From a bacterium (GTDB lineage: Bacteria > Myxococcota_A > Bradymonadia > UBA7976 > UBA1532): DNA of 64,000 nucleotides. The notes under the pieces are model-generated. The model ran no database searches. It was not told the origin of the DNA and worked only from the letters and a program-made list of their open reading frames with translations. The stretch is from the NCBI GenBank assembly GCA_041389985.1, contig JAWKQS010000014.1, forward strand, positions 14,553 to 78,552, read 5' to 3'. The position numbers and the translations under genes were made by a program. Of this stretch, positions 1,851-26,919 are shown piece after piece (the first letter of the stretch is position 1; every line of letters begins with the position of its first letter).

Positions 1851-3693
1851 TGCGACGCATTGGCGGGTGGTGGGTGGTGGCCCTCCTGGCCCTCGGTGGC
1901 TGTGACGACGCGGGCACGACGGAGACGCCGGCAGACTGCCGCAACGCGGCGCTGGCGTGCGCGCCGGGGTTCGAGTGCGCGGCCGTCGGAGGGGGGTTCG
2001 AGTGCGTCCGGGCGGCCGACGTCGACGCCGACGGGGCGGACGCCCAGGCCCGCGACGCGGTGGCGGACGCGCAGCTCGAGCGAGACGCGGCGGTGGTCGA
2101 GCCCGACGCGGGTCCTTCGGCCCGACCGGGCGGGTCCTGCGGGCCCGATCTGCCCTGCCTCGACGGCGAGTGCCGCGATGACCTGCCCGGCGGCTTCTGC
2201 CGCGTCCCGTGCCAGGACGACGCCGCCTGCGGTCCCGACGCGGTCTGCTCGACCGGGGGGTCGTGCCGCACCCGCTGTGACGACCTGGGCTGCCGCCGCG
2301 GCTGGGTGTGCGACGGCCGCGAGGAGCCCGCCGTCTGCCGCCCCGACTGCAACGAAATCGCCTGTGGAAACGAGGACATCTGCAACCCCGACTCGGGCCT
2401 GTGCGAGCCCGCGCCGGTGTGCGTCCCCGAGACGTGCAACGAGAAGGACGATGACTGCGACGGCATGCTGGACGAGGGCGTGCAGAACGCCTGCGGCGGC
2501 TGCGGCGACGTCCCCGAGGAGACCTGCAACGGCCGCGATGATGACTGCGATGGCGCCGTGGACGAGGCCGTCCTGAATGCCTGCGGGGCCTGTGGCGACG
2601 TGCCCGAGGAGGCCTGCAACGACGTGGACGATGACTGCGACGGCGAGGTGGACGAGGGGCTGCGCAACGCCTGCGGGGACTGCGGACCGGCCCCGCCGAG
2701 CTCTGCAATGACATCGACGACGACTGCGACGGCACCGTGGACGAGGGCGCCCGCAACGCCTGCGGGGCGTGCGGCCCGCCGGCCGTCGAGGCCTGCGACG
2801 GCGTGGACGCCGACTGCGATGGCGCCGTGGACGAGGACGCCCCCTGCGCGGCCGGGCAGATCTGCCTCGAAGGGCGGTGCCGCCAGCCGCGCAGCGAGGC
2901 CGGCGGGCCGTGCCGGGTCGACGACGACTGCGCAGCCGGCGTGTGCAACGACGAGCCCATCTTCCCCGGTGGGTGGTGCCAGGTCGACTGCGCCCGTGAC
3001 GTCGACTGCGGCGCCGCCGCGGCCTGCCTGGACGTCGGCGTGCTGGCCTGTCTGGAGCGCTGCGACGCGGCCGCCGACTGCCGCCCGGGCTGGGTCTGCT
3101 ACGCCGACGACGGCATCTGCTTCCCGTCGTGCCAGAACATCGGCTGCGCCGCGGGCTACCTCTGTGGGGCCGACGGCTTCTGTGCCATCCCCGTCCTGAA
3201 CATCACGGTGACGCAGGTCTTCCTCAGCCCGGGCGTGAGTGATGGCAGCGCCTGGGATGGCTTCGGCAACGTGGGCCAGGCCGACTTCGCGGCCGCCGCC
3301 CAGGCCGCGCTGTCCGGTAACCTGGCGAGCCTCACCGCGGTGGCGGCCCAGTTCGCCAACGCCGCCTACGCCCCGCCCGATCCGTTCGGCACCGCCACGC
3401 TGCTCCAGGGCCCCATCAGCCGCTCCCTCAACCTGGCCGAGATCCAGGACACCTACTCGCCGCAGTGGGCTGGCATCTCGTGGCGCGTCGCCCTGGACCC
3501 CGCCGCCGACACCCGGGTGCGCATCAGCCTGACGGACGCGGACCTGGCCAACGACGACCCCATCGGCACCGTCGAGGTGGGCCAGGCGGACCTCATCGCG
3601 GCCCAGGCCGCGGGCCGCGTCTTCCCCGTCGCCACGGTGAACCAGGGCAACGGCCACATCATCGCCGTGGCCATCAGCGTCCGCGCCGAGTAG
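1851..3693 (+). CDS. Cys-rich secreted lipoprotein with tandem CxxDDDCDGxxDE...NACGxCG repeats (MopE-like putative metal-binding motif); apparent -1 frameshift near 2690-2700
   Basis: Signal/lipobox MRRIGGWWVVALLALGGC. At least six copies of the CNxxDDDCDGxVDEGxxNACGxCG repeat. The repeat continues in a second frame (ORF 2737..3693) after a single-base loss in a ccccgcc run. Confidence 0.6.
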
Positions 3694-3888: not shown

Positions 3889-6800
3889 ATGCCACACGTC
3901 CACCACCATCCACTCGCCCGCTGGCTGTGCGGCCTCATCGCGCTGGCCGGCTGCGCCCCCACGACGTCGACCCCGGAGCCCGACACGCCGCCGGCCGTGG
4001 CGCAGCGCTCCGATCCCCTGAGCGACGAGTGCGTCGCGCCCGGGTGCGGCAACGGCGCCCTGGAGGCGTACGAGGCCTGCGATGATGGCAACACCAAGGG
4101 CGGCGACGGCTGCTCGGCCACCTGCCTGCGGGAGCAGGCCGAGCCGAAGCCGGCGGGCGTCATCCGCCTGCAGAACCGCACCCTCTCGCCCGCCGAGGCC
4201 ATCGACCCCGCCCTCGTCGCGGCGGCCGCCGAGGCGCCGCAGCCCTACCTGCACGCCATGGCGGTCTTCGACGAGCGCCCCGACTCCGAGGCCCCGGCCG
4301 CGTGGGCCGAGGCCGGCATCGAGCTGGCGGGCTACATCCACGCCGAGGTCTACATCGTCAAGCTGCCCCTCACCGAGACGGCGGACGGCGAGCCCATGGA
4401 CGAGGCGGGCTTCGAGGCGCTGCGGGTGCGCCTGGGGGCGAAGCACCTGGTGGCCTTCGCGCCGGGCGACCGCGCCGACGAGGCCACCCAGGCCGGCGAT
4501 CTGCCCGACTGGGCGGTGGATCCGGCCACGGGCCTGGCCCATGTGCTGGTGCTGGTCTACGGCGGCGTGCCCGCCCACGACCGCGACGCCCTCATCGAGG
4601 GGATCCAGGCCGGCGACGAGCCGGCGGTCCTGGCCTCCGAGGCGCTGGTGGCGGTGACGACGCCCGTCGAGGCGCTGCCGACCCTGCTGGCCAGCCCGCT
4701 GGTGGAGTGGATCGAGCCCGGCCCGCACCCCGCCGACGAGCTGATGGACGCCGTGCGCGCCAACCTGGGCGTGACCAACGCGGACCGCCCGAGCCTGTGC
4801 CTGACGGGCGCCGGCGTGCGCCTGGCCACGGTCGCCGAGACCGCGCAGGCCAACCACCCGGACTTCTACACCTACGACGTCAACGGGGTGCAGGGCGCCT
4901 CCCGCCTGCTCGCCGGTGCCGCCGGCGGCGGGACCCATGGCACCCATGTCATCGGCATCATGGCGGGCAACGGCTGGCTGAGCCAGGCGCTGGGCGGCCG
5001 GCCGTTCCAGTGGCGCGGCGTGGCCCCGGAGGCCCAGGTGACGGACGCGGAGTGGTACTCCGCCAGCCCCACCGGCGTGCGGCCCCACGCCGCCGGCAGC
5101 TCGACCGTCCCCATCGGCTTCGACGGCTTCTACGACGCCGGGCTCATGGACATGGACGCCCGCATCCGGGGCGATGCCCACCTGGGACACTTCTACACCC
5201 AGCTCTGGGCGGCCGGGAACAACGGCGGCGGCTACGCGGGGGGGGCCACCGGCCAGGGCTCCGGCTCCGGCACCCGGGGCAACTACGCCGTCGTCGCCAC
5301 CGGCAAGAACACCATCAGCGTGGCCAACATCTTCGCCGAGGACTTCCGCTGGGCCTCCAGCTCCATGGGCCCCAGCCACGACGGCCGCATCAAGCCCGAG
5401 GTGGCCGCCCCCGGCTGCCGCCTGCGCCACCCCTACCAGGACGTGGCCTTCGAGGTGGAGTACCTGCGCGTCGTGCGCCCCGCGCCGGGCGACGCCGACC
5501 TGAACTACGACTTCGAGGGGCCCACCATGGATGGCTGGTACCCCTGGCAGATGTGGCGCGAGAAGGCCACCGGCCCCACCAAGGTGGCGTCGCCGGGGGG
5601 CCACGCCGCGCGCTTCATGCTCACCGGGCCGCGGCCCCTGGTGCAGTGGAGCAAGTATGAGGTGGCCGCCGGCGAGCGGACCATCCATGACTACTTCAAC
5701 GGCACCTACGGCGGCCTGAGCAAGGCCAACGACGAGATCCACCTGCGCTACCGCTACGCCGGCGGCGAGCCGCTCTTCGAGGGCGGCCACATCCTCCTCT
5801 GGTGGTTCTGGAACCTGACCGACGCCAACCCCAACAACGACCAGGTGCGCTACCTGGAGGTGCCCATCCGGGCCGACGGGGCCTGGGACACCATCGTGCT
5901 GCCCGCCAGCGCCCTGGGCGACTGGGCCGGCCACCCCATCGACACGCTGCGCCTCTCGCCCGGCGCCCCCAACCCCGGCGCCGTCATCGCGGCCGGCGAG
6001 ATCAGCCAGTATGCCGGCATGTGCGGCACCTCCATGGCCTCCCCCGCCGCCACCGGCGTCGTCGGCCTGCTGCTCGAGGAGCTGGCCACCACCCGCGGCG
6101 TGGATCTGGACGATCCCCTGTCGCCGTCGCCCTTCGCCTGGGGCAGCCCCGGCACCGGCCGCCCCCTGCCCTCGACCTTCCGCGCCCTGCTCGTCCACAG
6201 CGCCCGGGATCTGGCCCGCGTCGCCCGCATCGGCGACACCAACGGCGCCGACACCGGCGAGCCGCCCTCCTACCACAAGGGTCCCGACTACACGATGGGC
6301 TACGGCGCCGTGGACGCCGAGGAGGCCGTGCGCGTCCTCCAGGAGAACGCCGCCGGCAACCTGCCCATCTACGAGCGCCAGGCCGCCCCGGCCACCACCC
6401 AGGTCTTCAACCTCACGGTGCCCCCCAACCAGCGGGCCCCGCTCAAGGTCACCCTGGCCTGGAGCGACCCCGGCATCTCGCCGACCGGCCTCCAGCACGA
6501 GAAGAAGCTGGTCAACGACCTGGACCTGGAGCTGCGCGCCCCGTCGGGGGCCGTCCACCGGCCCTGGTCCATCGATCTGCCTTACATTCCCTACAGTTGC
6601 CCGACGTGTCTCCCCCCGCAGGCGGTCGGCGACGAGCCCGTCACCACCGCCGACTTCGTACCGGCGCGCAACGACCTGAAGAACAGCCGCGACAACCTCG
6701 AGATGGTCTACGTCGAGACGCCGGAGGCTGGCGTCTGGCAGGTGCGCGTCTCGGTGCCTCCGCTGCCGACCGGCCCCCAGAAGTACTCCATCATCCTGGG

Positions 6801-7979: not shown

Positions 7980-8010
7980 TGGTGGCGTGAGCCGTACCGG
8001 CGCCCTCGAC

Positions 8011-8464
8011 GGCGTCCGGGGCACCCCCTGCCCACCTCGAACCGCCCTCGACCGCGTCCGGGGCACCCCCATGCCCACCTCGAACCGCCCTCGACCGCGT
8101 CCGGGGCACCCCCTGCCCACCTCGAACCGCCCTCGACCGCGTCCGGGGCACCCCCCTGCCCACCTCGAACCGCCCTCGACCGCGGCCGGGGCACCCCCCT
8201 GCCCACCTCGAACCGCCCTCGACCGCGTCCGGGGCCCTCCGATCCTGCCTCGGAGTCGCCCCGACCGGCCCCCGGGGCCCTCCGATCCTGCCTTCGAGTC
8301 GCCCCGACCGGCCCCCGGGGCCCTCCGATCCTGCCTTCGAGTCGCCCCGACCGGCCCCCGGGGCCGTCCGATCCTGCCTCCGAGTCGCCCCGACCGGCCC
8401 CCGGGGCCCTCCGATCCTGCCTTCGAGTCGCCCCGACCGGCCCCCGGGGCCCTCCCCGCCCCCC
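8011..8464. repeat. Two adjacent direct tandem-repeat arrays: unit A about 42-43 bp x5.6 (8011-8249) and unit B 43 bp x5 (8250-8464)
   Basis: Unit A is cgccctcgaccgcgtccggggcaccccctgcccacctcgaac. Unit B is cgatcctgcc(t/c)(t/c)(c/g)gagtcgccccgaccggcccccggggccctc. Copies are near-identical, head-to-tail with no spacers. The unit length is not a multiple of 3. Confidence 0.85.
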
Positions 8465-8534
8465 TCGAAGCGCCCGCTTGAATCCCGCCGCGCCCCGTGG
8501 CCCAATGCCGCAGGGCGATCGTCGGGAGCATCGG

Positions 8535-10751
8535 GTGTACTACTGCCGCCGCTGCGAGATGGGCCGCGCCCTGGCGGCCACCCCATGCCGCCACGGCCCG
8601 ACGCCCCTGGTCAGCCTGGCGGGCTTCACCGTCGGCAGCTTCATCGGCCAGGGCGCCCACGGCCGCGTCTTCGGCTGCACCGCCGACGGCCGTGAGTGGG
8701 CCGTCAAGATCATCGACCTGCGCACCGCCGTCAGCGGCGCCGACATCCGCCGCCTCGTCGACCGCGAGAAGGCCGCCCTCGTGCGCCTGCGCCACCGCCA
8801 CGTGATCGCCCTGCACCAGACCGGCGAGCACGACGAGCTGCTGTTCCTGGTGGTCGAGCGCCTGGAGGAGACGCTGCGCCAGCGCATGCAGCAGCCCATC
8901 GCCCTGCCCCGCGCCCTGGAGTACGCCGCCTGCCTGGCCGACGCCCTGGCCTACGTCCACGACGCCGGGTCGCTGCACCGGGACGTGAAGCCCGAGAACA
9001 TCGGCTTTCGCCGCGACGACTCCCTGGCCCTCTTCGACTTCGGCCTGGCCGCCGACCGCACCACCGGCCGCGCCGCCCACACCACCGGCGTCGTCGGCAC
9101 CTGGCCGTACGCGGCCCCCGAGCAGATCCTGACCCGGGAGAGCGACCAGGCGACGGACGTCTACAGCCTGGGCGCCGTGCTCTTCGAGCTCTTCACGGGC
9201 GGCTCCCACCGCCCCGTCCCGGATCAGCTGAACCCCGTCGCGTGGCTCGCCCAGCCCATCCCCGCCTGGCCGACCGAGCGGGCGCTGCCGGTCGGGATCA
9301 CCCCCCTCGCCGACCTCATCCACGCCTGCCTCGCCCGCGAACCCGGCACCCGCCCGGCCATGTGGCAGGTGCAGGACGCCCTGGGCGAGCTGGCCGACCG
9401 GGCCCACCTGGACTTCGCGCGCCTGGCCGGCGAGCACCAGCGGCTGACGCGGGAGGTGGAGGCCGCCCGCGCAGAAGCCGCTGATCTGACTGCGAAATCC
9501 AAGCAGGCCAGGACGACCGCCCAGCAGGCCGAGGCCCGACGCGCCACCGCCGAGGCCGAGGGCAAGCGCCTCGCCGAAGAGCTCGACCGCCTGCGCGCCG
9601 AGGCCGCCCGGGCCGAGGACGAGGCCCAGCGCGCCGCCGCCAGCCGCAGGCGAGACGCCCAGGAAGCCGAGACGCGGGCCGCGAAGGCCGAAGCCCGGCG
9701 CGAGGCCGCCGAGGCGAAGCGCGCGACCGCCGAGGCCAGCGTCACGGCGCTCCAGGCCGAGCGCGACCGGCTCACGAAGGAGCTGGAGCGCTTGCGGACC
9801 GGGGAGACGTCGTCGACGGAGCCATATCCGGAGGCGATGAAGCACGCCCGTGAGGCCCTCGGGACGAAGCGGGCGCAGGCCCCGCCGCCGACCGCCGGCC
9901 AGCTCATCGCACCAGCGACGGCGACCCGACCCGCGCTGCGGTGGGTTCCGTCCGGCACCTTCACCATGGGCAGTCCCCCCGACGAACCGGGCCGAGGCGA
10001 CGACGAGGTGAGGCACCCGGTGACGCTGTCCTCCCCGCTCCTGGTGATGGAGACGCCCATCACCCAGGGCCAGTGGGCAGCGCTGCTGGGCACGCGCCCC
10101 TCGTACTTCCGCCAGGGCGGCGACACCTGCCCGGTGGAGCGGGTGAGCTGGTACGAGGCGGTGGCGTTCGCGAACGCGCTGTCGGCGGCGGAGGGCCTGA
10201 CGCCAGCGTACCGGGTGGGGCCAGCGTCGGGCACGCTGGGCGGGGGGTTGGCAGCGGGCCAGCCATGGGCCGCCGGCGACTTCCAGTACGCTTCGGTAGA
10301 GCCGGTGCCGGGGGCGAGCGGCTACCGCCTGCCGACGGAGGCGGAGTGGGAGGGCTGGCCCGCGCAGGGACGCCGGGGGCCATCTACGCGGGAACGCTGG
10401 AGATTCTGGGCGAGCGCAACGCCTGCCCTGGACCCCATCGCCTGGTATGGGGGCAACAGCGCCAAGGCGACGCACCCGGTGGGGCAGAAGGCGGCCAACC
10501 CGTGGGGCCTGCACGACGTGCTCGGCAACGTCTACGAGTGGTGCTGGGACGGGTATGCCCCCTACCCGACGGGCATGCAGCAAGACCCACACGGCCCACC
10601 CACCGGCGTCCACCGGGTTGTCCGTGGCGGGTCGTGGATCACGAACGCGCGGTGGGTGCGGTCGGCGAACCGCAACCACTGCGGCCCGGTCAGGCGGTAC
10701 GCGGTCATCGGGTTCCGCCTCGTTCGCCCCCCCAGCTCGGTCGGACCTTGA
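8535..10751 (+). CDS. DGR target 1: Ser/Thr protein kinase, coiled-coil, FGE-sulfatase (C-type lectin fold) domain with VR at the C-terminus
   Basis: Hanks kinase motifs IGQGAHGRVF, HRDVKPEN, DFG and APE. Long Ala/Glu/Arg coiled coil. FGE-sulfatase signatures RLPTEAEWE, THPVGQKAANPWGLHDVLGNVYEWCWD and RVVRGGSW. Start chosen at GTG 8535 (GGGAG RBS 6 nt upstream; VYYCRRC zinc-ribbon N-terminus like the paralogs). Alternative in-frame starts are ATG 8505 and TTG 8478. Confidence 0.8.
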   Translation: MYYCRRCEMGRALAATPCRHGPTPLVSLAGFTVGSFIGQGAHGRVFGCTADGREWAVKIIDLRTAVSGADIRRLVDREKAALVRLRHRHVIALHQTGEHDELLFLVVERLEETLRQRMQQPIALPRALEYAACLADALAYVHDAGSLHRDVKPENIGFRRDDSLALFDFGLAADRTTGRAAHTTGVVGTWPYAAPEQILTRESDQATDVYSLGAVLFELFTGGSHRPVPDQLNPVAWLAQPIPAWPTERALPVGITPLADLIHACLAREPGTRPAMWQVQDALGELADRAHLDFARLAGEHQRLTREVEAARAEAADLTAKSKQARTTAQQAEARRATAEAEGKRLAEELDRLRAEAARAEDEAQRAAASRRRDAQEAETRAAKAEARREAAEAKRATAEASVTALQAERDRLTKELERLRTGETSSTEPYPEAMKHAREALGTKRAQAPPPTAGQLIAPATATRPALRWVPSGTFTMGSPPDEPGRGDDEVRHPVTLSSPLLVMETPITQGQWAALLGTRPSYFRQGGDTCPVERVSWYEAVAFANALSAAEGLTPAYRVGPASGTLGGGLAAGQPWAAGDFQYASVEPVPGASGYRLPTEAEWEGWPAQGRRGPSTRERWRFWASATPALDPIAWYGGNSAKATHPVGQKAANPWGLHDVLGNVYEWCWDGYAPYPTGMQQDPHGPPTGVHRVVRGGSWITNARWVRSANRNHCGPVRRYAVIGFRLVRPPSSVGP
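10603..10736 (+). repeat. DGR variable repeat VR1 (last about 45 codons of target 1)
   Basis: 134 nt identical to the TR except at 9 positions, all of which are adenines in the TR (A to T or G). Confidence 0.85.
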
Positions 10752-10815
10752 GTCTAGAGTCTAGAAAGTGTGTTGTGCGCGGCAGATCTGCCGTGGCGCG
10801 GCACTCCGCGGCAGA
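10752..10815 (+). promoter_or_regulatory. Conserved post-VR element (palindromes TCTAGAgTCTAGA and CGGCAGATCTGCCG); candidate cruciform/hairpin next to the IMH region
   Basis: Starts right after the target-1 stop. A near-identical copy (2 mismatches) follows the target-2 stop in the same relative orientation (13186-13250). Further GGCAGATCTGCC-type palindromes at 10831-10844, 10857-10876 (perfect 20-nt palindrome) and 10893-10904. Confidence 0.6.
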
Positions 10816-10933
10816 CGCCGGCACCTTCTTGGCAGGATCTTGCCGACTGGGTGCCGTCATCGGCAGATCTGCCGATGGCGGCAAGACCGCCAACGCCGAT
10901 CTGCCGCATTCGGCAATCGCTCAGGGGGTCCCC

Positions 10934-11467
10934 ATGGAGCTTGACCTGCGCCAGGCGGCGGCGCTCATCGGCCGGCGCGAGCGGACGCTGCGCGACCAGC
11001 TCGTCCGGGGCGCCATTCGGGGCCGGAAGGTGGGTGGTCGCTGGGTGGTGCGCGAGGAAGACCTGCCCATCGACGAGGCGCGGCGGCAGACGCTGCGGGG
11101 CCGCGCGGACGCAGTGCGCGCGAGCGTCGAGACGGCCATCGCACGGCGCCAGCCAGCCATGACCATCGAAGACGTCGAGGTCTTCCGCCTGGGGCGCGAA
11201 GCGCTCCACCGCCTCGACGCCGGGCACGGCGAGATCGCGAGCGCGATCCGGGAGGCCTTGCTGCACATGGGCGTCGCCCACCATGAGTACGACGCGGGCC
11301 GCAAGCAGGCCGAGTGGGGGCGAGCCCGGATTCAGCTCGCCCGCGCCGTGCTCCTGCGCCTGCTCCCCGCCGCCACCGACTCCACTGCCGAGGTCGCGGA
11401 CGCCCTGGAGCGCGACGTCATCCCCCGCCTGGGTGGCCTGCTCCGCCGCACGGCGGAACGCCCATGA
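10934..11467 (+). CDS. Excisionase-family helix-turn-helix DNA-binding protein (DGR-associated)
   Basis: ATG 10934 after AGGGGG. N-terminus LRQAAALIGRRERTLRDQLVRGAIRGRKVGGRWVVREEDL matches the excisionase/MerR-like HTH pattern (...GRRWRI.REDL). The stop overlaps the next start (ATGA at 11464-11467). Confidence 0.6.
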   Translation: MELDLRQAAALIGRRERTLRDQLVRGAIRGRKVGGRWVVREEDLPIDEARRQTLRGRADAVRASVETAIARRQPAMTIEDVEVFRLGREALHRLDAGHGEIASAIREALLHMGVAHHEYDAGRKQAEWGRARIQLARAVLLRLLPAATDSTAEVADALERDVIPRLGGLLRRTAERP

Positions 11468-11800
11468 AGCAGGCACCGCTGGCCGTGTTCGCCCACGATC
11501 TGGCGGTGTGGCTGCATGGGCAGGCACAGCGCGCCTCGGTCGCCCACCAGGCGACGGGGCTGCCGGCGGCCGCCGCGGCGCAGAGTCGGACGCTCCTCAT
11601 CCAGGTGAGTCTGGCGCTCACGTTCCGCGAGGGCCGAGGCGAACACCAGCGCGGGGCGGACGAGGCCCTCGCGAGCCTACGGGTCTTGCTGCGGCTGGGA
11701 GAGGCCATCGGCTGGCTCACCCCGGCGGGCCTGCTGCACGCCGCCGCCCTCATGGATCCGGCGGGCCGCATCCTGGGCGGCTGGCGCCGGGGGCACCAGC
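11464..11800 (+). CDS. avd: Avd-like accessory variability determinant (3' end uncertain; ORF formally runs to 11991)
   Basis: Helical protein of about 110 aa. Its C-terminal segment ...LRVLLRLGEAIGWLTPAGLLHAAALMDPAGRILGGWRRG resembles the Bordetella bAvd C-terminus (...VGRILGSWIARVNRKG) of the four-helix-bundle family. Translationally coupled to the HTH gene. The tail beyond about 11800 is low-complexity and overlaps the convergent RT gene. Confidence 0.5.
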
Positions 11801-12732
11801 AGTCCCAGGTGGGCGGCGAGGCTGCGCTCGACGTCGTTGGGGGCCCCTCCCAGGGCGCTGGTGACACGCTGCCCGAGCCGGCGCCAGGCCCGCGGCAGGG
11901 GCTGCGCGCCCGCCGTCGACACCGCGTGGCCCAGCCCATGGAGCACTTCGCCGCGGTGGATGACGGGCGCGTCGGGCCGCTTGAGCCGTAGGCCACGCTC
12001 GGCCTCCAGCCAGACTCCCAGGTCGGTCCGGATCCGCCGGAGTTGCCGACGATCGTCGGAAAACATAAACAGATCATCCACATAGCGTACGTAGCCAGGG
12101 ACGCGAAGGGTGCGCTTGACCCAGGCATCGAGGCCCGAAAGGTAGACGTGGGTGGCCAGAATCTGACTGGTCAGCGCGCCGATCGGCAGGCCTCGACCCG
12201 GTGGTGGCCAGTCGGCCGGCAGGCCCATGAAGGCCCGGACGTCGGTACGGCGGTACAGGGTCGTGCCCTGGTCGAGGATGCGGCCCACCAGCGCCAGCAC
12301 GGGCGGTTCGCGCACGAAGGCGGCGAGCAACGCATGCAGACGCTCCACCTGCACGCTCGGGAAGAAGGCGCGCACGTCCAGATGCAGGGCAAAGCGATGG
12401 CGGCGCTTCAGCCTGAGCAGCGCCAGCACGGCCCGGTGGGTCCCGAAGCCGGGACGACAGGCGTGGTTCTCGGGCATCAGCCGGCGCTCGATGGCGGGCC
12501 AGAGGGCCGTCATCAAGGCCGTGTGCACGACGCGGTCCTCGATGGGCGAGCGGGCGATGACGCGGGGCTTGGGATCCCGGATGAGGAGAGGCTCGCAGGG
12601 GGCGGGCTGCCAGGTCTCAGCAGCGAGGGCGGTCGCCAGCCGGAGGGCGACCTCCTCCCGGCGAAAGAAGAGCCAGGCGCCCTCAGGGCGGTGCCGCTTG
12701 CCACGCAGCGTCCGGTCGACCGCCGCCAGCAA
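11677..12732 (-). CDS. DGR reverse transcriptase
   Basis: RT motifs: N-terminus LLAAVDRTLRGKRHRPE...LLIRDPKPRVIARSPIEDRVVHTAL. FFPSV. DGR-specific motif 4 IGALTSQ (about 12163-12183). YVDD box GYVRYVDDLFMFSDD (about 12073-12084). C-terminal ...ERSLAAHLGL thumb-like segment. The start is uncertain (TTG 12732 proposed; no in-frame ATG; ORF frame open up to 13227 through the TR). Confidence 0.8.
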   Translation of the reverse strand: MLAAVDRTLRGKRHRPEGAWLFFRREEVALRLATALAAETWQPAPCEPLLIRDPKPRVIARSPIEDRVVHTALMTALWPAIERRLMPENHACRPGFGTHRAVLALLRLKRRHRFALHLDVRAFFPSVQVERLHALLAAFVREPPVLALVGRILDQGTTLYRRTDVRAFMGLPADWPPPGRGLPIGALTSQILATHVYLSGLDAWVKRTLRVPGYVRYVDDLFMFSDDRRQLRRIRTDLGVWLEAERGLRLKRPDAPVIHRGEVLHGLGHAVSTAGAQPLPRAWRRLGQRVTSALGGAPNDVERSLAAHLGLLVPPAPAAQDAARRIHEGGGVQQARRGEPADGLSQPQQDP

Positions 12733-12887
12733 TGCCGCAGGATCCGTGATGCGCGGGAAGAGGCCGCCGACGCTACGCAGAGGTGCACCCGCGGGCGTTC
12801 GACCGGACGTGCCGTCTACCAGGACGCGGGTGCGAGGTCGGCCGGGGCCGACGGCTGGACGCCTGCTCGGGGCCACGCAGGCCGCGG

Positions 12888-13021
12888 GCTGGGGGGGCGA
12901 ACGAGGCGGAACCCGATGTTCGCGTTCCGCCTGACCGGGTCGTTGTGGTTGCGGTTCGCCGACCGCACCCTCCGCGCGTTCGTGTTCCACGACCCGCCAC
13001 GGACAACCCGGTGGTCGCCGG
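12888..13021 (-). repeat. DGR template repeat (TR)
   Basis: 134 nt with 23 adenines, including 7 AAC codons in the VR reading frame (WNTNARRVRSANRNHNDPVRRNANIGF). Matches VR1 and VR2 except at adenines. Lies immediately 5' of the RT on the same strand. Confidence 0.85.
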
Positions 13022-13185
13022 ACGGCATCCACCCTGCCCGCATGATGAGGACGGCTGACCCGGCGGCGCAAGCCCCGCGGTGCCGGGTTCGGCAGCTCCG
13101 GGTGCCGCTGGCGGCAAGAAGTGATCTGAATCTGCCGCACACGGCACCGAAACGGCAGAAACCTGCCGCGGAGTGCCGAATCTTG

Positions 13186-13250
13186 CCGCGGAGTGCCGCG
13201 CCACGGCAGATCTGCCGCCCACAACACACTTTCTAGAATCTAGACTCAAG
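13186..13250 (-). promoter_or_regulatory. Second copy of the conserved post-VR palindromic element (downstream of VR2)
   Basis: The reverse complement matches 10752-10815 with 2 mismatches. An additional CGGCAG-AAAC-CTGCCG hairpin lies at 13153-13168. Confidence 0.6.
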
Positions 13251-15959
13251 GCTCGACCAGGCTGGGGGGGCGAACGAGGCGGAACCCGATGACCGCGAAC
13301 CGCCAGACCGGGTCGTTGAGGACCCGGTCCGCCGACCGCACCCTCCGCGCGTCCGTGTCCCACGACCCGCCACGGACAACCCGGTGGTCGCCGGTGGGTG
13401 GGCCCGATGGGTCCGGGTGGACGCCCGGCGGGTAGGGGGCGTACCAGTCCCAGCACCACTCGTAGACGTTGCCGAGGACGTCGCGCAGGCCCCACGGGTT
13501 GGCCGCCTTCTGCCCCACCGGGTGCGTCCCCGAGAACTTCGCCGGCCGCTGCATCTCCGGCCAGCCCGACGAATCGTAGCCCTTCTCCACCCCGCTGTTG
13601 CCCCCGTACCACACGATGGGGAGTCCAGGGGCTGGCGCGTTGTTCTTGCCCAGAATCTCCAGTGTTCCCGCGTAGATGGCCTCCCGACGTCCCCGCACGG
13701 GCCAGCCACCCCACTCCGCCTCCGTCGGCAGGCGATAGCCGCTCGCCCCCGGCACGGGCTCTACCGAAGCGTACCGGAAGTCGCCGTCGGCCCATGCCTT
13801 GTCCGCTGGCAGACCCCCTGCCGAGCGTGCCCGACGCCTGCCCTACCCGGTGGCTGCGTCAGCCCTCCGCCTTCGACAACGCGCTCGCGAACGCCACCGC
13901 CTCGTACCAGCGCTCACCTGCCCACTGGGCAGGGTGTCGCCACACGCCCCGAAGTACGAGGGCTTCGCCTCAGCACCGCAGACCACTGGCCCTGCGACCT
14001 CCGTCTCCATCACCCACAGCGCCTGAGTCACCGTCACCTCATGCGGCACTCCTCATCGTCGTCGCGGCCCGGCCTCGCCCGCGCGCCGGCATGGCAGTGG
14101 CCCTTCTTGCCGTCCGGGCTGCCCATGCAGAACTCCCAGCGGGGACGGCGGAGTGCGGGGCGCTGGGGGTGGCGCTGGCGACCAGGGCACCCGGTGCGGG
14201 AGTGGAAGCGGTGGGGCGTCAACTGCCTGGGATGGTGGTGCCGCGTCCACGGCCAATGGCGGCCGGGCCGCATCAACGGCGAGGGATGGTGGTGCCGCGT
14301 CCATGGCCACCGGCGGCCGGGCCGCATCAACGGCGAGGGATGGTGCTGCGTCCACGGGTTCGCGCTGCTCTTCGCCGCCGGCCGAGGCGCCCACGACGAG
14401 CCCAATGCCGATTCCACGAGCAGGGCGCCTCCGACGCTCGCGCCGAGCATGACCCGGCGGCGGCGGGCGTTATGGCTGCGCTGTGCTTCCAGGCGCTCGG
14501 CGTCGGCCAGGGCCTGCCTGGCCGACGCGAGACGCTGGGCCTCCGCGCTCGCCTCGGCGCGCGCGCTTCGCACGGCGTCGCGGGCGATCTCGCTGGTGGC
14601 GCGCAGAGCGGTCGCCTCCCGACCCGCCTCGCTGATGCGCTCCTGCAGGGTCTCCAGCTCCACCGCCAGGCGGGCGGTCGCGACCGCCCGCCGTGTCGCC
14701 AGGTCTCGCTCCAGGGCCTCCACGGCAGCGGCCCGCTCAGCAGCCAGGCGGTCCCTCTGGGCCCGCTCCTCCACCTTCGCATGCTTCAGCTGTCGGTCCG
14801 CCGACGCCCGCGCCTCCGCCAAGGCGGCCTCCGCGGCCGCACGCTGGCTGGCCAGCTCGCGGGCCAGAGCATCCGTGGCAGCGGCGCGCTCCTCCGCCAG
14901 CTTCTTCCGCTGCGCGGTCTGTTCGGTCCTGGCCTGCCGGGCGATGCGCTCGGCCGCGGCTCGCGCCTCGGCGACCGACGCCTGGGCCTCTGCGAGCGCC
15001 GCCTGCTCGGTAGCCAGCCCAATCTCGACCTGGACGAAGCGGGCGTGGGCCTCGCCCAGGCCGGTGCCCAGGCGGTCGGCCAGTTCCGCCACGACGTCCA
15101 GCACTGCCCAGGTGTCTCGCGGGCGAGCGCCTGCCTCGACCGCGAGGCACTGGAGGATGAGCCGGTCCAGCGCCGCAGGACGGGCGGGGTCGGGCGGGAG
15201 CGGTGGCACCGGCTGGCGGGCGTATGCCTCGTAACCCCCTGAAAACCCTTGGGGTCGGTGGCTCCTGCCGGCGATGAGCTCGTAGAGGATGGCCCCGAGG
15301 GCATAGCGGTCCGACCAGGGACCGTCGCGGCCAAAGACCTTCGGAACGAGCTGTTCCGGCGCAGCGTAGGGCCGACTGAACCCCTTGACGCCCACCGTGG
15401 TGGCGCTGTCGCCGCGGCGCACGCCGGCCAGGCCGAAGTCGAAGACGTAGAGGTGGTCGCGGTCGTCCAGGCCCAGGTTCTCGGGCTTCAGATCGCGGTG
15501 GATGACGCCGACGTCGTGCATGTAGGCCAGCGCGTCGGCGAGCTGGGCGGCCAGCTGAATGGCCCGAGGCAGGGTCAGCAGGCGTCCCGGAGCCGCTCGC
15601 AGGACGTCCTCAAGCGTGCGCGGGACATACTCGGTAATGAGGCAGAGCCGACCCGCGACCTCTTCGGCATGGATCAGGGCGATCACATGGGCATGGGCCA
15701 GCTGCGTCAACGTCGCGCGCTCGCGGCTGAACAGCTCGTGGGCGTCGTCAGGTCGATCGAAGCCGTTGGGGTCGATGACCTTGATCGCCCGGCGGAAGTC
15801 GCCCTGGAAGCACTTCGACACCCGGGAGGCGCGCGACTTCTGGATGGACGCCCCAGCCTTCCAGCTGTCATCCAGGCCCGGGATGAGCGCCGTCGGGTGG
15901 TGGCCCTCGGTGCACCGGTCGCCGTCGGTGGGGATGAGGCAGAGCGGGCAGAGGTACAT
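13246..15959 (-). CDS. DGR target 2: Ser/Thr protein kinase, coiled-coil, FGE-sulfatase (CLec) domain; reading frame interrupted at least 3 times (likely sequencing errors)
   Basis: ATG 15959 (MYLCPLC zinc-ribbon N-terminus). Kinase motifs HRDLKPEN, DFG and APE. Coiled coil. FGE domain split over ORFs 14034..16010, 13843..14049 and 13246..13755 (HEVTVTQALWVMETEV..., RLPTEAEWGGW..., THPVGQKAANPWGLRDVLGNVYEWCWD, RVVRGGSW), ending in VR2. Confidence 0.7.
13261..13394 (-). repeat. DGR variable repeat VR2 (3' end of target 2)
   Basis: 134 nt. It differs from the TR at 11 TR-adenine positions plus one C-to-G. Confidence 0.8.
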
Positions 15960-16149
15960 CAGCCGTCCCACCCCAGCTCGAGCTCCAGGCCGCCACCTTC
16001 CAGCAGGCACGGCCCGCGGGCGGTCTGGCCGCGGGGGAGGCGGCGGCCGTCGACGCGCAGGGTGCCGGCGGCGTCCTGGCGGCCGACGGTGAGGGCGTCG
16101 CCGGTGACGTCCACGAAGAAGTGGACGCGGGCCATGCGGTGGGTGGCGC

Positions 16150-23097: not shown

Positions 23098-26000
23098 TCA
23101 GCGGCGGATGATCAGGTTGTAGTGGACGACCGCCTCCAGCGGGGTGACGACCACGTAGTAGGTACCCGCGTTGAGGCCGAGGGTGGTGGACGGCCCCACG
23201 TCGAGGCTGCCGTCCACCTGGCGGAGGCGCTGCCCGAAGCCGTTGTAGAGCTCCAGGCGGACGCGCCCGAAGTGGGCGCCGTAGGTCACGGCGATGGTGG
23301 TCTCCCGGCGCTGGTCCAGCCGGAAGCTGTAGCGATCCACCGGGTCGAAGCCGGTGCAGACGTCGAGGTCGCGGTACTCCTGGTTGTCCAGGAACCGGAT
23401 CTGGCGCACATCCTCGTTGGGATCGAGGGCGTCCACGCAATCGAAGCAGCCCGGGGGGCCCCCGGCGTCGTTGCAGAACACGACCGGCTCCACCGTGAGG
23501 CTCGCGGAGTAGCCCAGCGGGGCGTCGAGCTGGCTGCCGTCCACCAGCGCGATCAGGATGGCCGGATCGAAGACCAGCAGCTCGACGCCGCCGTCCACCG
23601 ACCGCCCCACGGCGTCGCCGTCGAGGGTGAAGACGCCGACCTGGGCCAGGGCGTCGACCGCCGCGCCCAGCGTCGCGAAGCGCACCCAGGCGGGGCCATC
23701 GGTGCCGAACAGGTAGTAGTCCTGGGGATCGAAGTCCTGGCAGAGGGTCAGGCCCTCGGTGATCCCCGGATCGATGGGGGCGGCGTCGTCGGGGACGTCG
23801 TTGTCTTCCAGCGCGTCGTCGCAGGCCGAGAGCGCCCGGCAGGGGCCCCAGTCCGCCCACTGGCCGGCGTCGTCGCAGACGCGCTGCTGCTGGCCAGGCT
23901 GGCCGCCGGCGTTGCAGGCGCGCTCCTCCACCGCGCCGGGCTGGCACTCGATGGGCGAAGCCTGGACGGTCAGGGTGCTCTGGCCCGAAGAGAAGCGGAA
24001 GCCGTCCACGAACAGGTACCAGGTGCCCGCCGGCAGGATCTCCTCGATGCGCGACCAGTTGCCCTGGCCGCCGTCGTCGTCGCACGCGATCTCGGTGCCC
24101 TGATCGAGGCAGTCGGCGCGCAGGAAGAGCGCGGTGTCGTAGTCGGCCCGCGTGATCTCGAAGATCACGTGCACCGGGGCATCGTTGCTGAAGCGCAGCA
24201 CCTGCTCGCCGCCCGCCGCGTTGCCCGCGCAGCTCGCGAGGTGCCGGCTGACCCGGTTGCGGGTGTCGAAGCCGTAGGTGGCGCCGTTCTCCAGCACGTC
24301 GAGGTCGTAGGCCAGGTCCAGGCAGGGATCATCGGGCGAGACGCAGGCGCTCCAGTCGCCCCAGGCGCCCTGGAGGCAGGTGCGCACCTGCTGGCCGCGA
24401 TCCTGGTTGCAGCCGCGCTGCTCCTGGGCCCCGTCCACGCAGACGTCGGGATCGACGCAGCCACCGAAGCCGCCCCACTGGCCGGCGGCGCAGACGCGGG
24501 TGCGGGTGCCGCGCCCGTTGAGGCCGCAGGCCTCGTCCTCGCTGGCGCCGTCCACGCAGACGTCGGGATCCGCGCACATGCCGTAGGCGCCCCACTGCCC
24601 GTTCACGCAGGTCCGGGATCGCATCCCGCGGCCGTTCTGGCCGCAGGCCTGGGACTGATCGGCGCCATCGCGGCACACATCGGGATCGGCGCAGTCGCTC
24701 CACCGCTGCCAGAGGCCGCCCGCGCAGAGCCGCGCCTGGGTGCCGCGGTTGTTGAGGCCGCAGGCCCGGTTCTCCATCGCGCCGTCGCGGCACTCCCCCG
24801 CGCCGATGCAGGCGGACCAGTCGGCCCACTGCCCGGCGACGCACTCGCGCCGCTCCTCGCCGTTGCCATTGGGACCACAGACCCGGGTCTCTTCGCGGCC
24901 ATCCACGCACACATCGGGATCCTGGCAGGCCGAGAACGCGCCCCAGCGGCCATTGGCGCACTGGCGAGACTGGGCGCCCCGCCCGTTGAGGCCGCAGGCC
25001 TGCTCTTCCACCGCGCCATCCCGGCAGATGTCGGGATCCACGCACATGCCCCAGTCACCCCACCGGCCCGCCGCACAGAGGCGAGCCTGGGCCCCGCGGC
25101 CGTTGACGCCGCACGCCCGCGACTCCTCGGCCCCGTCCAGGCACTGGTCGGGATCCGCGCACATGCCCCAGTCGCTCCACTGGCCGCGCCGGCACTGGCG
25201 AGCCTGGGTACCGCGGGCGTTGAGGCCGCAGCCGCGGTTCTCGGTGCGGCCGTCCACGCAGACGTCGGGATCCACGCAGGCGCTCCAGGCGCCCCAGGCG
25301 CCCCCGGCGCAGACGCGCTCCTGGCTGCCCCGGCCGTTGAGGCCGCAGCCACGCTGCTGCCGATCCCCGTTGCCGCAGTCGGCGTTGACCACGCACTCGC
25401 CGAAGCCGCCCCACTGGCCATCCGCACACGTCCGCACCTGGGTGCCGTTGCCGCCGTCGCCGCAGGCGCGCTCTTCTTCAGCGCCGTCCACGCACACGTC
25501 GTCGTCCCGGCAGGCCCCGAAGTCGCCCCACTGGCCGGCCGCGCAGGTCCGCGTCCGCAGCCCGCGGCCGTTGAGCCCGCAGGCCTGGTCCTCGGTGCGA
25601 CCGTCGAGGCAGACGTCGGGATCGGCGCACGCCCCCCAGGCCCCGAACACCCCGTTCATGCAGGCGCGGCTCTGGGTGCCGCGGCCGTTGAGGCCGCAGG
25701 CCCGCGTCTCCGGCACGCCATCCTCACAGCGATCCGGATCCTGGCAGGCGCCATACTCACCCCACTGGCCCTGCTGGCAGGTGCGCGTCTCGACGCCCCC
25801 GCCGTTGAGGCCGCAGGCGCGCTGCTCCTCGGAGCCATCGGCGCACACATCGGGATCGGCACACGCCGACCAGGGGCCGAAGCGGTTGTCCACGCAAATA
25901 CGCCGCTGAGCGCCGCGGCCGTTGAGACCACAGGGGCGCTCCTCCTCGCGGCCGGGCAGGCAGTCCGCCACCTGCTCGCAGGCCCCGAACTCGCCCCACT

Positions 26001-26919
26001 GGCCGTTCACGCACGTGCGGCTGTGCTGGCCCAGGCCATCGGCCCCACAGGCCTCGACCTCCTCGGCCGTGTCGCGGCAGACGTCGACGTCGACGCACTC
26101 CCCCTCGGGCACCCACTGGCCGTCCCCGCAGCTCTCGCGCACCTCCCCGCGCCCGTTGAGGCCGCAGGGCACGGATCGCTCGCTGCCGTTGGTGCAGGCA
26201 TCGGGATCGACGCAGGCTTCCCAGGCCGCCCACGCGCCGTCGGCGCCGCAGGCACGCACCTGGCTGCCCCGCTCGTTGAAGCCGCAGGCGCGCTCCTCCG
26301 TGGCCCCGGGATCACAGGCACCCGGCGCCTGACAGTCGCCCCAGGCCCCCCAGTGGCCGCCCTCGCATGCGCGAGTCGCCTCGCCCCGATCGTCCGCGCC
26401 ACAGGCGCGCCGGTCGACGCGACCATCGACGCACTCGTCGGGATCGGCGCAGGCATCCCACATCGGCCAGTTGCCCTGGTTGTCGCAGGTCCGCCGCTCC
26501 ACCCCCCGGCCATTGAGGCCGCAGGCGCGCTCTTCCTCCTGGCCCGTGCTGCACTCCCCCAGGCGACACTCGCTCCAGGCGCTCCACTGCCCCTCGGCGC
26601 CGTGGCGGTGGCGGGCGCCCGCCATCGCAGCCCTCCGGGTCGGTCTCCTCGGCCCCGTCCGAGCAGATGTCGGGATCAGCGCACTCGCCGAACGCCGTCC
26701 ACATCCCCCCGGGGCAGGTGCGCAGCTCCTCGCCCCGTCCGTTGATGCCGCAGGGCCGGCGCTCCTCGTCGCCGGGCGTGCAGGCCCCGCCGACGGCCGC
26801 GTCGGGCGCCGCGTCGCCCGCGGCGTCGGGCTGCCCCTCTCCCGTGAGATCCGGGTTGTCATCGGTGCAGGCGGCCAGCCCGAGCAGCAGGCTGGCCAGG
26901 AGCAGCGCGCGTGTACGCA
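23098..26919 (-). CDS. Large secreted protein with about 21 tandem TSP1-like repeats and a C-terminal PPC-like domain; apparent frameshift near 26615-26635
   Basis: Signal peptide MRTRALLLASLLLGLAAC (ORF 26312..26950 frame). About 40-aa repeats ACGLNGRGxQxRxCxxGQWGxWGxCxDPDVCxDGxxE resemble the thrombospondin type-1 pattern W..W..C..CG.G.Q.R.C. C-terminal ...ACDDDGGQGNWSRIEEILPAGTWYLFVDGF. Confidence 0.65.
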   Translation of the reverse strand, partial: CVHARCSWPACCSGWPPAPMTTRISRERGSPTPRATRRPTRPSAGPARPATRSAGPAASTDGARSCAPAPGGCGRRSASALIPTSARTGPRRPTRRAAMAGARHRHGAEGQWSAWSECRLGECSTGQEEERACGLNGRGVERRTCDNQGNWPMWDACADPDECVDGRVDRRACGADDRGEATRACEGGHWGAWGDCQAPGACDPGATEERACGFNERGSQVRACGADGAWAAWEACVDPDACTNGSERSVPCGLNGRGEVRESCGDGQWVPEGECVDVDVCRDTAEEVEACGADGLGQHSRTCVNGQWGEFGACEQVADCLPGREEERPCGLNGRGAQRRICVDNRFGPWSACADPDVCADGSEEQRACGLNGGGVETRTCQQGQWGEYGACQDPDRCEDGVPETRACGLNGRGTQSRACMNGVFGAWGACADPDVCLDGRTEDQACGLNGRGLRTRTCAAGQWGDFGACRDDDVCVDGAEEERACGDGGNGTQVRTCADGQWGGFGECVVNADCGNGDRQQRGCGLNGRGSQERVCAGGAWGAWSACVDPDVCVDGRTENRGCGLNARGTQARQCRRGQWSDWGMCADPDQCLDGAEESRACGVNGRGAQARLCAAGRWGDWGMCVDPDICRDGAVEEQACGLNGRGAQSRQCANGRWGAFSACQDPDVCVDGREETRVCGPNGNGEERRECVAGQWADWSACIGAGECRDGAMENRACGLNNRGTQARLCAGGLWQRWSDCADPDVCRDGADQSQACGQNGRGMRSRTCVNGQWGAYGMCADPDVCVDGASEDEACGLNGRGTRTRVCAAGQWGGFGGCVDPDVCVDGAQEQRGCNQDRGQQVRTCLQGAWGDWSACVSPDDPCLDLAYDLDVLENGATYGFDTRNRVSRHLASCAGNAAGGEQVLRFSNDAPVHVIFEITRADYDTALFLRADCLDQGTEIACDDDGGQGNWSRIEEILPAGTWYLFVDGFRFSSGQSTLTVQASPIECQPGAVEERACNAGGQPGQQQRVCDDAGQWADWGPCRALSACDDALEDNDVPDDAAPIDPGITEGLTLCQDFDPQDYYLFGTDGPAWVRFATLGAAVDALAQVGVFTLDGDAVGRSVDGGVELLVFDPAILIALVDGSQLDAPLGYSASLTVEPVVFCNDAGGPPGCFDCVDALDPNEDVRQIRFLDNQEYRDLDVCTGFDPVDRYSFRLDQRRETTIAVTYGAHFGRVRLELYNGFGQRLRQVDGSLDVGPSTTLGLNAGTYYVVVTPLEAVVHYNLIIRR

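Follow-up and report, generated by a model that had tools for sequence, protein, structure and literature searches.

The 64-kb stretch of bacterial DNA analyzed here (the window) contains a complete diversity-generating retroelement (DGR), made of two target genes, a gene for a helix-turn-helix (HTH) protein, avd, the template repeat (TR) and the gene of a reverse transcriptase (RT). After each of its two variable repeats (VRs) stands an element of two parts, in which an AT-rich box at the stop codon of the target gene is followed by an array of short half-sites, CGGCA or TGCCG. It is well supported that this is a real, selected, VR-flanking cis element of one clade of DGRs. As for its function, the favored reading, to which a probability of about 50% can be given, is that the element serves the HTH accessory protein of the cassette as a phased array of binding sites, that it marks the VRs that are to be recipients, and that it possibly acts in autoregulation as well.

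A Bipartite Element after Each Variable Repeat

The anatomy of the element, its enrichment and its phasing can be observed directly. Target gene 1 ends with the stop codon TGA at 10749-10751 on the plus strand, and its box, TTGAgTCTAGAgTCTAGAaaGTGTGTTGTG, occupies 10748-10777 of the same strand as a run of T(T/A)GA words starting with the stop codon. At target gene 2, which lies on the minus strand and whose stop codon reads TCA on the plus strand (13246-13248), the box is found at 13220-13249, minus strand, as the reverse complement of TTGAGTCTAGATTCTAGAAAGTGTGTTGTG. A sequence such as TTGAgTCTAGAgTCTAGAaaGTGTGTTGTG is conspicuous in DNA of 74% GC, and it is present at only two places in the 64 kb, both of them at VRs. 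The arrays, to which no strand is assigned, follow the boxes. Array 1 (10780-10916) is composed of 13 CGGCA/TGCCG half-sites in the orientation + - + + + + - - + - + (gap) - +, and array 2 (13080-13217) of 14, which fill the spacer between VR2 and the TR. Counted outward from the VR, the first nine half-sites have an identical orientation in the two arrays, + - + + + + - - +, and the spacing of successive half-sites is 8-12 bp in both when all GGCA/TGCC are listed. After the 3' end of the TR there is neither a box nor an array.

These numbers are far from those of the surrounding DNA. With the expectation taken from the rest of the window, CGGCA/TGCCG is counted 12 times in array 1 vs about 1.0 expected (Poisson P 7e-10), and 14 times in array 2 vs about 1.2 (Poisson P 5e-11). 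The best period by the Rayleigh test is 10.1 bp for array 1 (R=0.88, P<0.0005) and 10.0 bp for array 2 (P=0.001); with a period of about 10 bp there is one half-site per helical turn, and all of them lie on one face of the DNA. Conservation of the half-site is limited to C-G-G-C-A: C stands before GGCA in 86% of the sites, and the flanking positions are weakly conserved.

An earlier note on this DNA had seen the end of the element that is nearest to the VR, and described it as a 64-nt module that comes after the target-1 stop and, in reverse complement, again after the target-2 stop. The recurrence was reproduced: over about 63 nt the copies differ at 2 positions, one of them G/T, located between the two TCTAGA, and the other C/G, preceding CGGCAG. 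The string quoted for the module is indeed present, although it starts at 10748 and not at 10752. Also found as described were the doubled TCTAGA (10753-10772 and, on the minus strand, 13225-13244; only two matches in 64 kb vs 0 expected), the perfect palindrome CGGCAGATCTGCCG at 10780-10793 and 13204-13217, the sequence ggcaggatcttgcc at 10831-10844, and the cggcag-aaac-ctgccg hairpin at 13153-13168. A 20-nt palindrome is present as well, one base away from the coordinates first given, at 10858-10877. Array 1 takes in the palindromes at 10780-10793, 10831-10844 and 10858-10877, and these are no separate objects, because they are neighboring inverted half-sites of one array. In contrast, the sequence that flanks the module cannot be called otherwise unrelated, as had been believed: the module continues a long inverted duplication of both target 3' ends, with arms at 10466-10824 and 13173-13531 (359 nt, 89%) and further arms back to about 10100. 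Past the 359-nt duplication, a weaker homology goes on for about 110 nt, and here the register of the half-sites is conserved.

Could such an element be a dispersed repeat of the genome, of the repetitive extragenic palindromic (REP) type, or an intrinsic terminator, placed after the target genes by chance? As palindromes of high GC content in the intergenic DNA that follows genes, its sequences would suit both proposals. However, the box and the module have only two copies in 64 kb, both flanking VRs, so that the REP-like dispersal named by the earlier note as the result that would speak against its claim is not seen within the window. The 12-mer GGCAGATCTGCC has 4 exact matches in the window, three in the DGR region and one at 2855, in a coding region of cysteine repeats; with <=2 mismatches the matches are 17 vs 6.8 expected, a number that 0 of 100 shuffles reach. 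Furthermore, the CGGCA word accompanies the DGR cassette in metagenome-assembled genomes (MAGs) assigned to different phyla. As for a terminator, the pattern of a hairpin followed by a T-run gave 0 sites in 10600-13400, and an Rfam search of 10400-13600 gave no credible match. Chance placement of a repeat or a terminator is thus highly improbable.

The window has other repeats of its own, namely very long cysteine-rich coding arrays at 24387-26767 (117-nt period, minus strand) and 45400-50500, and also at 3050-3150; those at 45-50 kb have units of about 66-72 nt, C-x-x-D-x-D-C-like. These coding repeats supply most of the near matches to GGCAGATCTGCC outside the DGR.

Two ideas about details of the element were tried and set aside. 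The box does not act as a set of stop codons in all three frames, since, of the three stops that follow target 1, the first two are in frame 0 and the last is in frame 1. The centers of some palindromes carry GATC (AGATCT, GGATCC-like), in the window at 10780-10793, 10858-10877 and 13204-13217 and also in the related loci L005 and L013. A meaning linked to Dam or BglII was considered for them; GATC is not conserved in the loci L001 or L006, and a link with Dam-type methylation seems unlikely.

Recurrence across Related Loci

The association with VRs, the conservation across loci, the co-occurrence with the HTH gene and the change of half-site in a distant branch are likewise direct observations. 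The loci compared are the contigs of the first HTH-protein homologues (L001-L004; the first search with this protein gave only four word-sharing homologues), those of an RT-based genome scan (L005-L009, with the HTH gene encoded in 5/5), those of a metagenome scan (L012-L015), and five contexts (L019-L023) taken from an exhaustive HTH profile search, whose matches at E<=1e-10 comprise 372 representatives of clusters made at 50% identity. In the window, and likewise in 15 other loci (L001, L003-L009, L012, L013, L019-L023), the HTH gene has a VR-bearing target and avd as its direct neighbors; it belongs to a DGR cassette in 15 of the 15 other loci with examinable context. The gene order in those 15 is target (FGE-sulfatase, VR), HTH, avd, (TR) RT, and a second target often converges on the RT.

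A box of the T(T/A)GA type stands after the VR stop in L015, in L019-L023, and in the window's subclade, which includes L001 (three targets), L012, L003, L005, L006, L008 and L013; in this subclade, CGGCA half-sites come after the box at the stop of every VR target. At L007 the upstream target is cut by the end of the contig, and CGGCA is enriched directly before the HTH gene. Taken together, box, array and HTH gene are found beside VRs in about ten independent loci of different phyla. In an unbiased screen of 5-mers, CGGCA ranked at the top or in second place in 12 of the 18 regions screened. The labels of the contigs are Pseudomonadota, Planctomycetota/Phycisphaerae, Alphaproteobacteria and Magnetococcales and, with labels from different phyla, the CGGCA word must travel with the cassette and not with a genome. 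Among the loci with CGGCA arrays, the identity to the HTH protein of the window falls to 33-40%. Nine arrays gave a period of 10.0-10.4 bp, which by the Rayleigh test is significant for eight (P<=0.003 in six, <=0.03 in two more), and a phase of about 10.2 bp recurs in L001, L012, L013, L003 and L006. When arrays are aligned with each other, the half-site columns are 80-98% identical vs 40-77% for the other columns.

These comparisons also bear on the simplest explanation for the two copies of the window, that the module is non-coding DNA copied together with the duplicated target 3' ends, without any function of its own. That it continues the 359-nt, 89% inverted duplication is in keeping with such hitch-hiking, and so is the fact that all three copies of L001 lie in long paralogous repeats. 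Nevertheless, in the window the homology past the stop codons decays in the spacers and not in the half-sites, and the enrichment and the phasing at 10 bp both greatly exceed what chance would give. Between loci, moreover, the box and the half-sites are kept while the HTH and RT proteins are 33-67% identical and the spacers 40-47%, a divergence that argues against recent horizontal copies of one sequence. Neutral hitch-hiking is therefore already disfavored, and it has very little probability left.

Is the element tied to the VR or to the neighboring genes? In L005, L008, L013, L019 and L020, arrays are placed between the RT stop and the stop of the convergent target, where no gene starts. At the third target of L001 the box and the three leading half-sites are present, and the 3' end of an unrelated gene adjoins them directly. 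Both situations tie the element to the VR end. A kinase/FGE paralogue of L001 that has no VR (4224-6512) is followed by neither a box nor an array. The third target of L001 (15514-18159, minus strand) is peculiar in itself, because it has three tandem FGE-sulfatase domains, each with a VR-like copy of the TR, and the module is found only after the C-terminal copy. In this locus, the three VRs that bear the module differ from the TR almost only at adenines (15/16, 16/16 and 12/14), whereas the two internal VR-like copies without it carry 6 and 9 non-adenine changes. This contrast fits a link between the module and homing, but it is suggestive only, for the 3' ends of the internal copies also differ.

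The more distant branch of the HTH family (L019-L023, HTH 26-34% identical) keeps the box and has another word, TGTC(A)/GACA, in 7-10 copies vs about 1.3 expected; the excess is 5-8 times in L019-L022. In L015 the repeat words are different again, TTGAC and CAAGTTG, and in L009 and L004 CGGCG-like words are apparent, as judged by eye only. A word that changes along with the HTH lineage is the pattern expected if protein and site were a co-evolving pair.

The Accessory HTH Protein

The candidate partner of the array is encoded at 10934-11467 on the plus strand. It is a protein of 177 aa, with an N-terminal winged HTH of the excisionase/MerR-like type and a C-terminal helical domain. The Pfam family HTH_17 matches it with E 4e-5 and matches 54 of the 54 members of the HTH family tested, and the profile of this family matches the Xis of mycobacteriophage Pukovnik (E 0.002). 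In the AlphaFold2 model (predicted local distance difference test, pLDDT, 79), the winged HTH of residues 1-45 is followed by a long helix and by four further helices. The fold predicted for the N-terminal 45 aa is the same as that of BldC, the RdfS excisionase and lambda Xis; with Foldseek, this part finds BldC, RdfS, Pukovnik Xis, TraN and RacA (prob 0.99, root-mean-square deviation 1.4-1.6 Å).

The C-terminal bundle is less informative: the top Foldseek matches include four-helix-bundle proteins of the IVS/S23 family and bAvd, and they are weak (E 0.08-1.1). An Avd-like C-terminal domain was considered and not retained, since there is no significant hhalign match to the co-encoded Avd family and Pfam bAvd matches 0 of 54 members; what is left is a weak hint only.

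The proteins that share the fold are instructive because of the DNA on which they act. Lambda Xis binds X1-X1.5-X2. BldC binds repeats of roughly 9 bp as cooperative head-to-tail filaments of variable length (PMC5859096), and RdfS, which also forms filaments, has attP and its own promoter as binding sites (PMC11963761). As in the window, the sites of these proteins are short repeats about one helical turn apart and variable in number, and the proteins have an architectural role in a DNA transaction, while RdfS also autoregulates. There are differences, too. The repeats of BldC and Xis are head-to-tail, whereas the half-sites of the window are GC-rich and of mixed orientation, with runs of 4-5 direct copies and inverted pairs. 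The HTH protein of the window has an extra helical domain of about 100 aa, and the DNA transaction proposed for it is retrohoming, that of Xis and RdfS being excision by a tyrosine recombinase.

Bound Protein or DNA Structure

An element placed directly 3' of a VR brings to mind the hairpin, or cruciform, of the known DGRs, and this was the first of the two roles that the earlier note considered for it. The position was well judged, given that the element follows each VR and is absent after the TR; the object, in contrast, is not the canonical GC-rich hairpin. According to Guo et al. 2011, the DGR hairpin has a GC-rich stem of 7-10 bp and of free sequence and a 4-nt GRNA loop (sense strand), is found 4-34 bp after the VR, is absent after the TR, and is needed for efficient retrohoming; inverted repeats downstream of the VR were reported to be nearly universal (PMC3240598). 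If such a structure were at work here, the inverted half-sites would, as in phage BPP-1, extrude beside the VR in single-stranded or supercoiled DNA and promote the integration of complementary DNA (cDNA) by structure alone, with no need for a dedicated protein.

Part of the evidence goes in this direction. The first palindrome is 29 nt after the stop codon, and about 41 nt past the end of the TR/VR homology, a position that agrees with that of Guo et al., and nothing comparable or equivalent follows the TR. As single-stranded DNA, the two arrays fold much better than shuffled sequence does (z -7.4 and -5.2), and a nested hairpin (CGGCAC...GGCAGG-loop-cTTGCC...GTGCCG) is kept in both copies of the window though its loop differs. 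The details are less favorable. The perfect stems are of only 5 bp at target 1 and 6 bp at target 2, and of 0 to 8 bp in the relatives, against the required 7-10 bp; the loops are GATC, GTTT, CACT, GACC, GTTC and ATC, and never GRNA. L003 and L006 are without any hairpin of >=5 bp within 110 nt of the stop. Instead of a stem of free sequence, the one word CGGCA is fixed across distant loci, so that sequence and not structure is conserved. Runs of 4-5 half-sites in the same orientation, as the distal CGGCAC x4 in L001 and L012, have no partner to pair with, and a helical phasing that holds regardless of orientation is not expected for hairpins. An explanation by structure alone is accordingly regarded as quite unlikely. 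A structural contribution is possible because the arrays fold well, but any inverted copies of one word would do the same.

The comparison with phage BPP-1, in which the initiation of mutagenic homing (IMH) site and a hairpin are involved, summarizes what is shared and what is not. Both systems have a GC-rich cis element with inverted repeats directly 3' of the VR and not after the TR, and in both the presumed role is to make the VR a recipient of cDNA. BPP-1 has one hairpin, while the window has an AT-rich box and about 13 copies of a fixed 5-bp word, which occur in both orientations over about 140 bp with a phase of about 10.2 bp. A dedicated HTH gene co-occurs with the element of the window, and BPP-1 is without such a gene.

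Retrohoming or Regulation

How might a phased array and an HTH protein act together? The HTH protein likely binds the array, as their co-occurrence and relative position suggest. Like Xis, BldC and RdfS on their own repeats, the winged-HTH protein would bind the half-sites and polymerize along the array. The nucleoprotein complex would then mark the adjacent repeat as a recipient VR and set it apart from the TR, which has neither box nor array after it. The complex would bend or untwist the DNA, or act as a roadblock, and in this way help to expose the AT-rich box and the 3' end of the VR to the complex of RT, Avd and cDNA; the box may be the site at which the DNA opens. In this scheme, the array and its protein would replace or extend the single GC-rich cruciform of phage DGRs. 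Array 1 stands in front of the HTH-avd operon, and the same binding would probably autoregulate this operon, in the way that RdfS acts on both of its sites. Two parts of this scheme, the identity of the protein on the array and the effect of its binding, are what we infer, and so is the step by which binding would license retrohoming rather than only regulate expression.

The second half of that alternative deserves attention, because the arrays could also be purely regulatory operators. The HTH protein or a host factor bound to them would control only HTH-avd (array 1) and TR-RT (array 2) and would have no part in the choice of targets. Directly upstream of these two transcription units is where both arrays are found in the window and in L001, every one-directional cassette has its largest array just upstream of the HTH start codon, and excisionase-like winged-HTH proteins such as RdfS do autoregulate their own promoters. 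What a plain operator does not explain is the presence of arrays between the RT stop and the target stop in the five convergent loci listed above, where no gene starts, or that of the box and first half-sites after the third target of L001, where they abut the 3' end of an unrelated gene. A search for sigma-70-like promoters detected none in 10600-13400, although such a scan is weak evidence for a GC-rich host. On balance, regulation as the only function is unlikely, though it is to be taken seriously. The suggestion in the earlier note that the module is the operator of the HTH protein survives in the sense that a binding site for this protein is the favored reading; in the strict sense of promoter control it is only partly apt, because homologous arrays sit between convergent gene ends. 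An additional regulatory role of the arrays is likely, since the largest ones always precede the HTH gene and some VRs have a box and 2-3 sites only.

Several observations weigh against a recipient-marking array bound by the HTH protein, and they should be considered together. The half-sites point in both directions, whereas the repeats of BldC and Xis run strictly head-to-tail, and the inverted half-sites fold well as single strands, with the z values already given. The 10-bp phase is clear in the CGGCA subclade only; L005, L008 and the TGTC-type arrays show no significant phasing, and the phase had to be abandoned as a universal property. The contrast between half-sites and spacers is somewhat inflated, because the aligner prefers to align repeats, and part of the similarity of arrays within one genome is inherited, because they are paralogous copies. 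The constant position of the largest arrays upstream of the HTH gene fits plain autoregulation, and the VRs that have only the box and 2-3 half-sites are those of the third target of L001 and the second targets of L021 and L022. Lastly, a covariation of the recognition helix with the half-site was looked for in an alignment of few sequences, and no clear pattern emerged.

The Cassette in the Window

The system in the window is a genuine DGR: the mismatches of the VRs fall at TR adenines, the RT adjoins the TR, and an Avd gene is present. Target gene 1 (8478-10751, plus strand) is an intact open reading frame (ORF) for a Ser/Thr kinase (Pfam Pkinase, E 4e-38) with a C-terminal FGE-sulfatase/C-type-lectin domain (FGE-sulfatase, E 7e-39) that carries VR1. 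This repeat, at 10603-10739 on the plus strand, measures 137 nt and is 93% complementary to the TR, from which it differs by 10 mismatches, 9/10 at TR adenines. The TR itself is at 12885-13021 on the minus strand, and VR2 is at 13258-13394 on the same strand, with 13 mismatches to the TR, 11/13 at TR adenines. Just upstream of the start that is annotated for target 1 (8478), a tandem repeat extends over 7982-8322, with a period of 42-43 nt and six copies of 66-84% identity.

Target gene 2 (13246-16010, minus strand) also encodes a kinase and an FGE-sulfatase domain, and its frame is broken between and within the domains. The kinase ORF runs from 16010 to 14034, where it stops, and the FGE-sulfatase part, read in a different frame, is interrupted by two in-frame stops and has a stretch around 13860-13960 that is frameshifted. 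Despite this, VR2 keeps its adenine-specific differences from the TR. The broken gene could be a recent pseudogene or an assembly error of the MAG in a repeated region.

The avd gene is at 11464-11991 on the plus strand, with a core of about 11464-11810; it is matched by Pfam bAvd (E 2e-5) and by NCBIfam DivGenRetAVD (E 2e-6), both below the curated cut-offs. The RT is encoded at 11677-12780 on the minus strand (Pfam RVT_1, E 1e-11) and is 65% identical to that of L001. The two ORFs converge and overlap in antisense for about 315 nt (11677-11991), because neither meets an early stop codon in DNA of 74% GC. In L001 the overlap is of only about 30 nt, so that the tails of avd and RT in the window are probably non-functional.

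Outlook

Accessory genes are a known component of DGRs, and Wu et al. 2018 list the classes Avd, HRDC, MSL and CH1 (PMC5758913). The HTH gene resembles them in being a small conserved ORF of the cassette, located beside avd and following the phylogeny of the RT, but none of the four classes includes it. It also differs from Avd in its predicted mode of binding: the HTH protein is expected to recognize DNA sequence-specifically, while Avd binds nucleic acid non-specifically. The HTH family is thus a candidate for a fifth class of DGR accessory genes. An HTH gene was mentioned by Dore et al. 2024 in DGR 8 (clade 5A) and in its closest relative, with a different role, and it has been set beside the HTH gene of the window by description only. 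In the literature searched, no description was found of an HTH accessory with arrays that flank the targets.

Another point concerns what these DGRs diversify. Many targets of the HTH-family loci examined carry kinase, TIR, NACHT or CHAT domains. The gene tables of L001 and L019-L023 show targets with TIR, NACHT, CHAT, SIR2, metallophosphatase or kinase domains at the N-terminus, and the neighbors include stand-alone TIR/ThsB-like genes. Such domains and neighbors fit the picture of Dore et al. 2024, that of a diversified sensor of a conflict system.

The broader proposal that emerges is that a widespread clade of chromosomal DGRs, the targets of which are kinase, NACHT or TIR sensors with FGE-sulfatase domains, defines its recipients by a protein and not by DNA structure alone, that the excisionase-like HTH protein, polymerized on a phased array of half-sites specific to the lineage, licenses the integration of cDNA at each VR, and that the half-site word (CGGCA, TGTCA and others) is an address that can be swapped and that ties a DGR to its own targets. 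It is put forward tentatively, as an idea that is possible but on balance doubtful. Understanding of how the cDNA of a DGR finds the VR and takes its place is still called incomplete (PMC12875486), and on the side of the target the only known determinants are the IMH and one hairpin. If the proposal is true, a dedicated DNA-binding accessory with a lineage-specific array beside every VR gives the target-finding step a testable handle, and engineered DGR mutagenesis could be steered by it to sites of choice.

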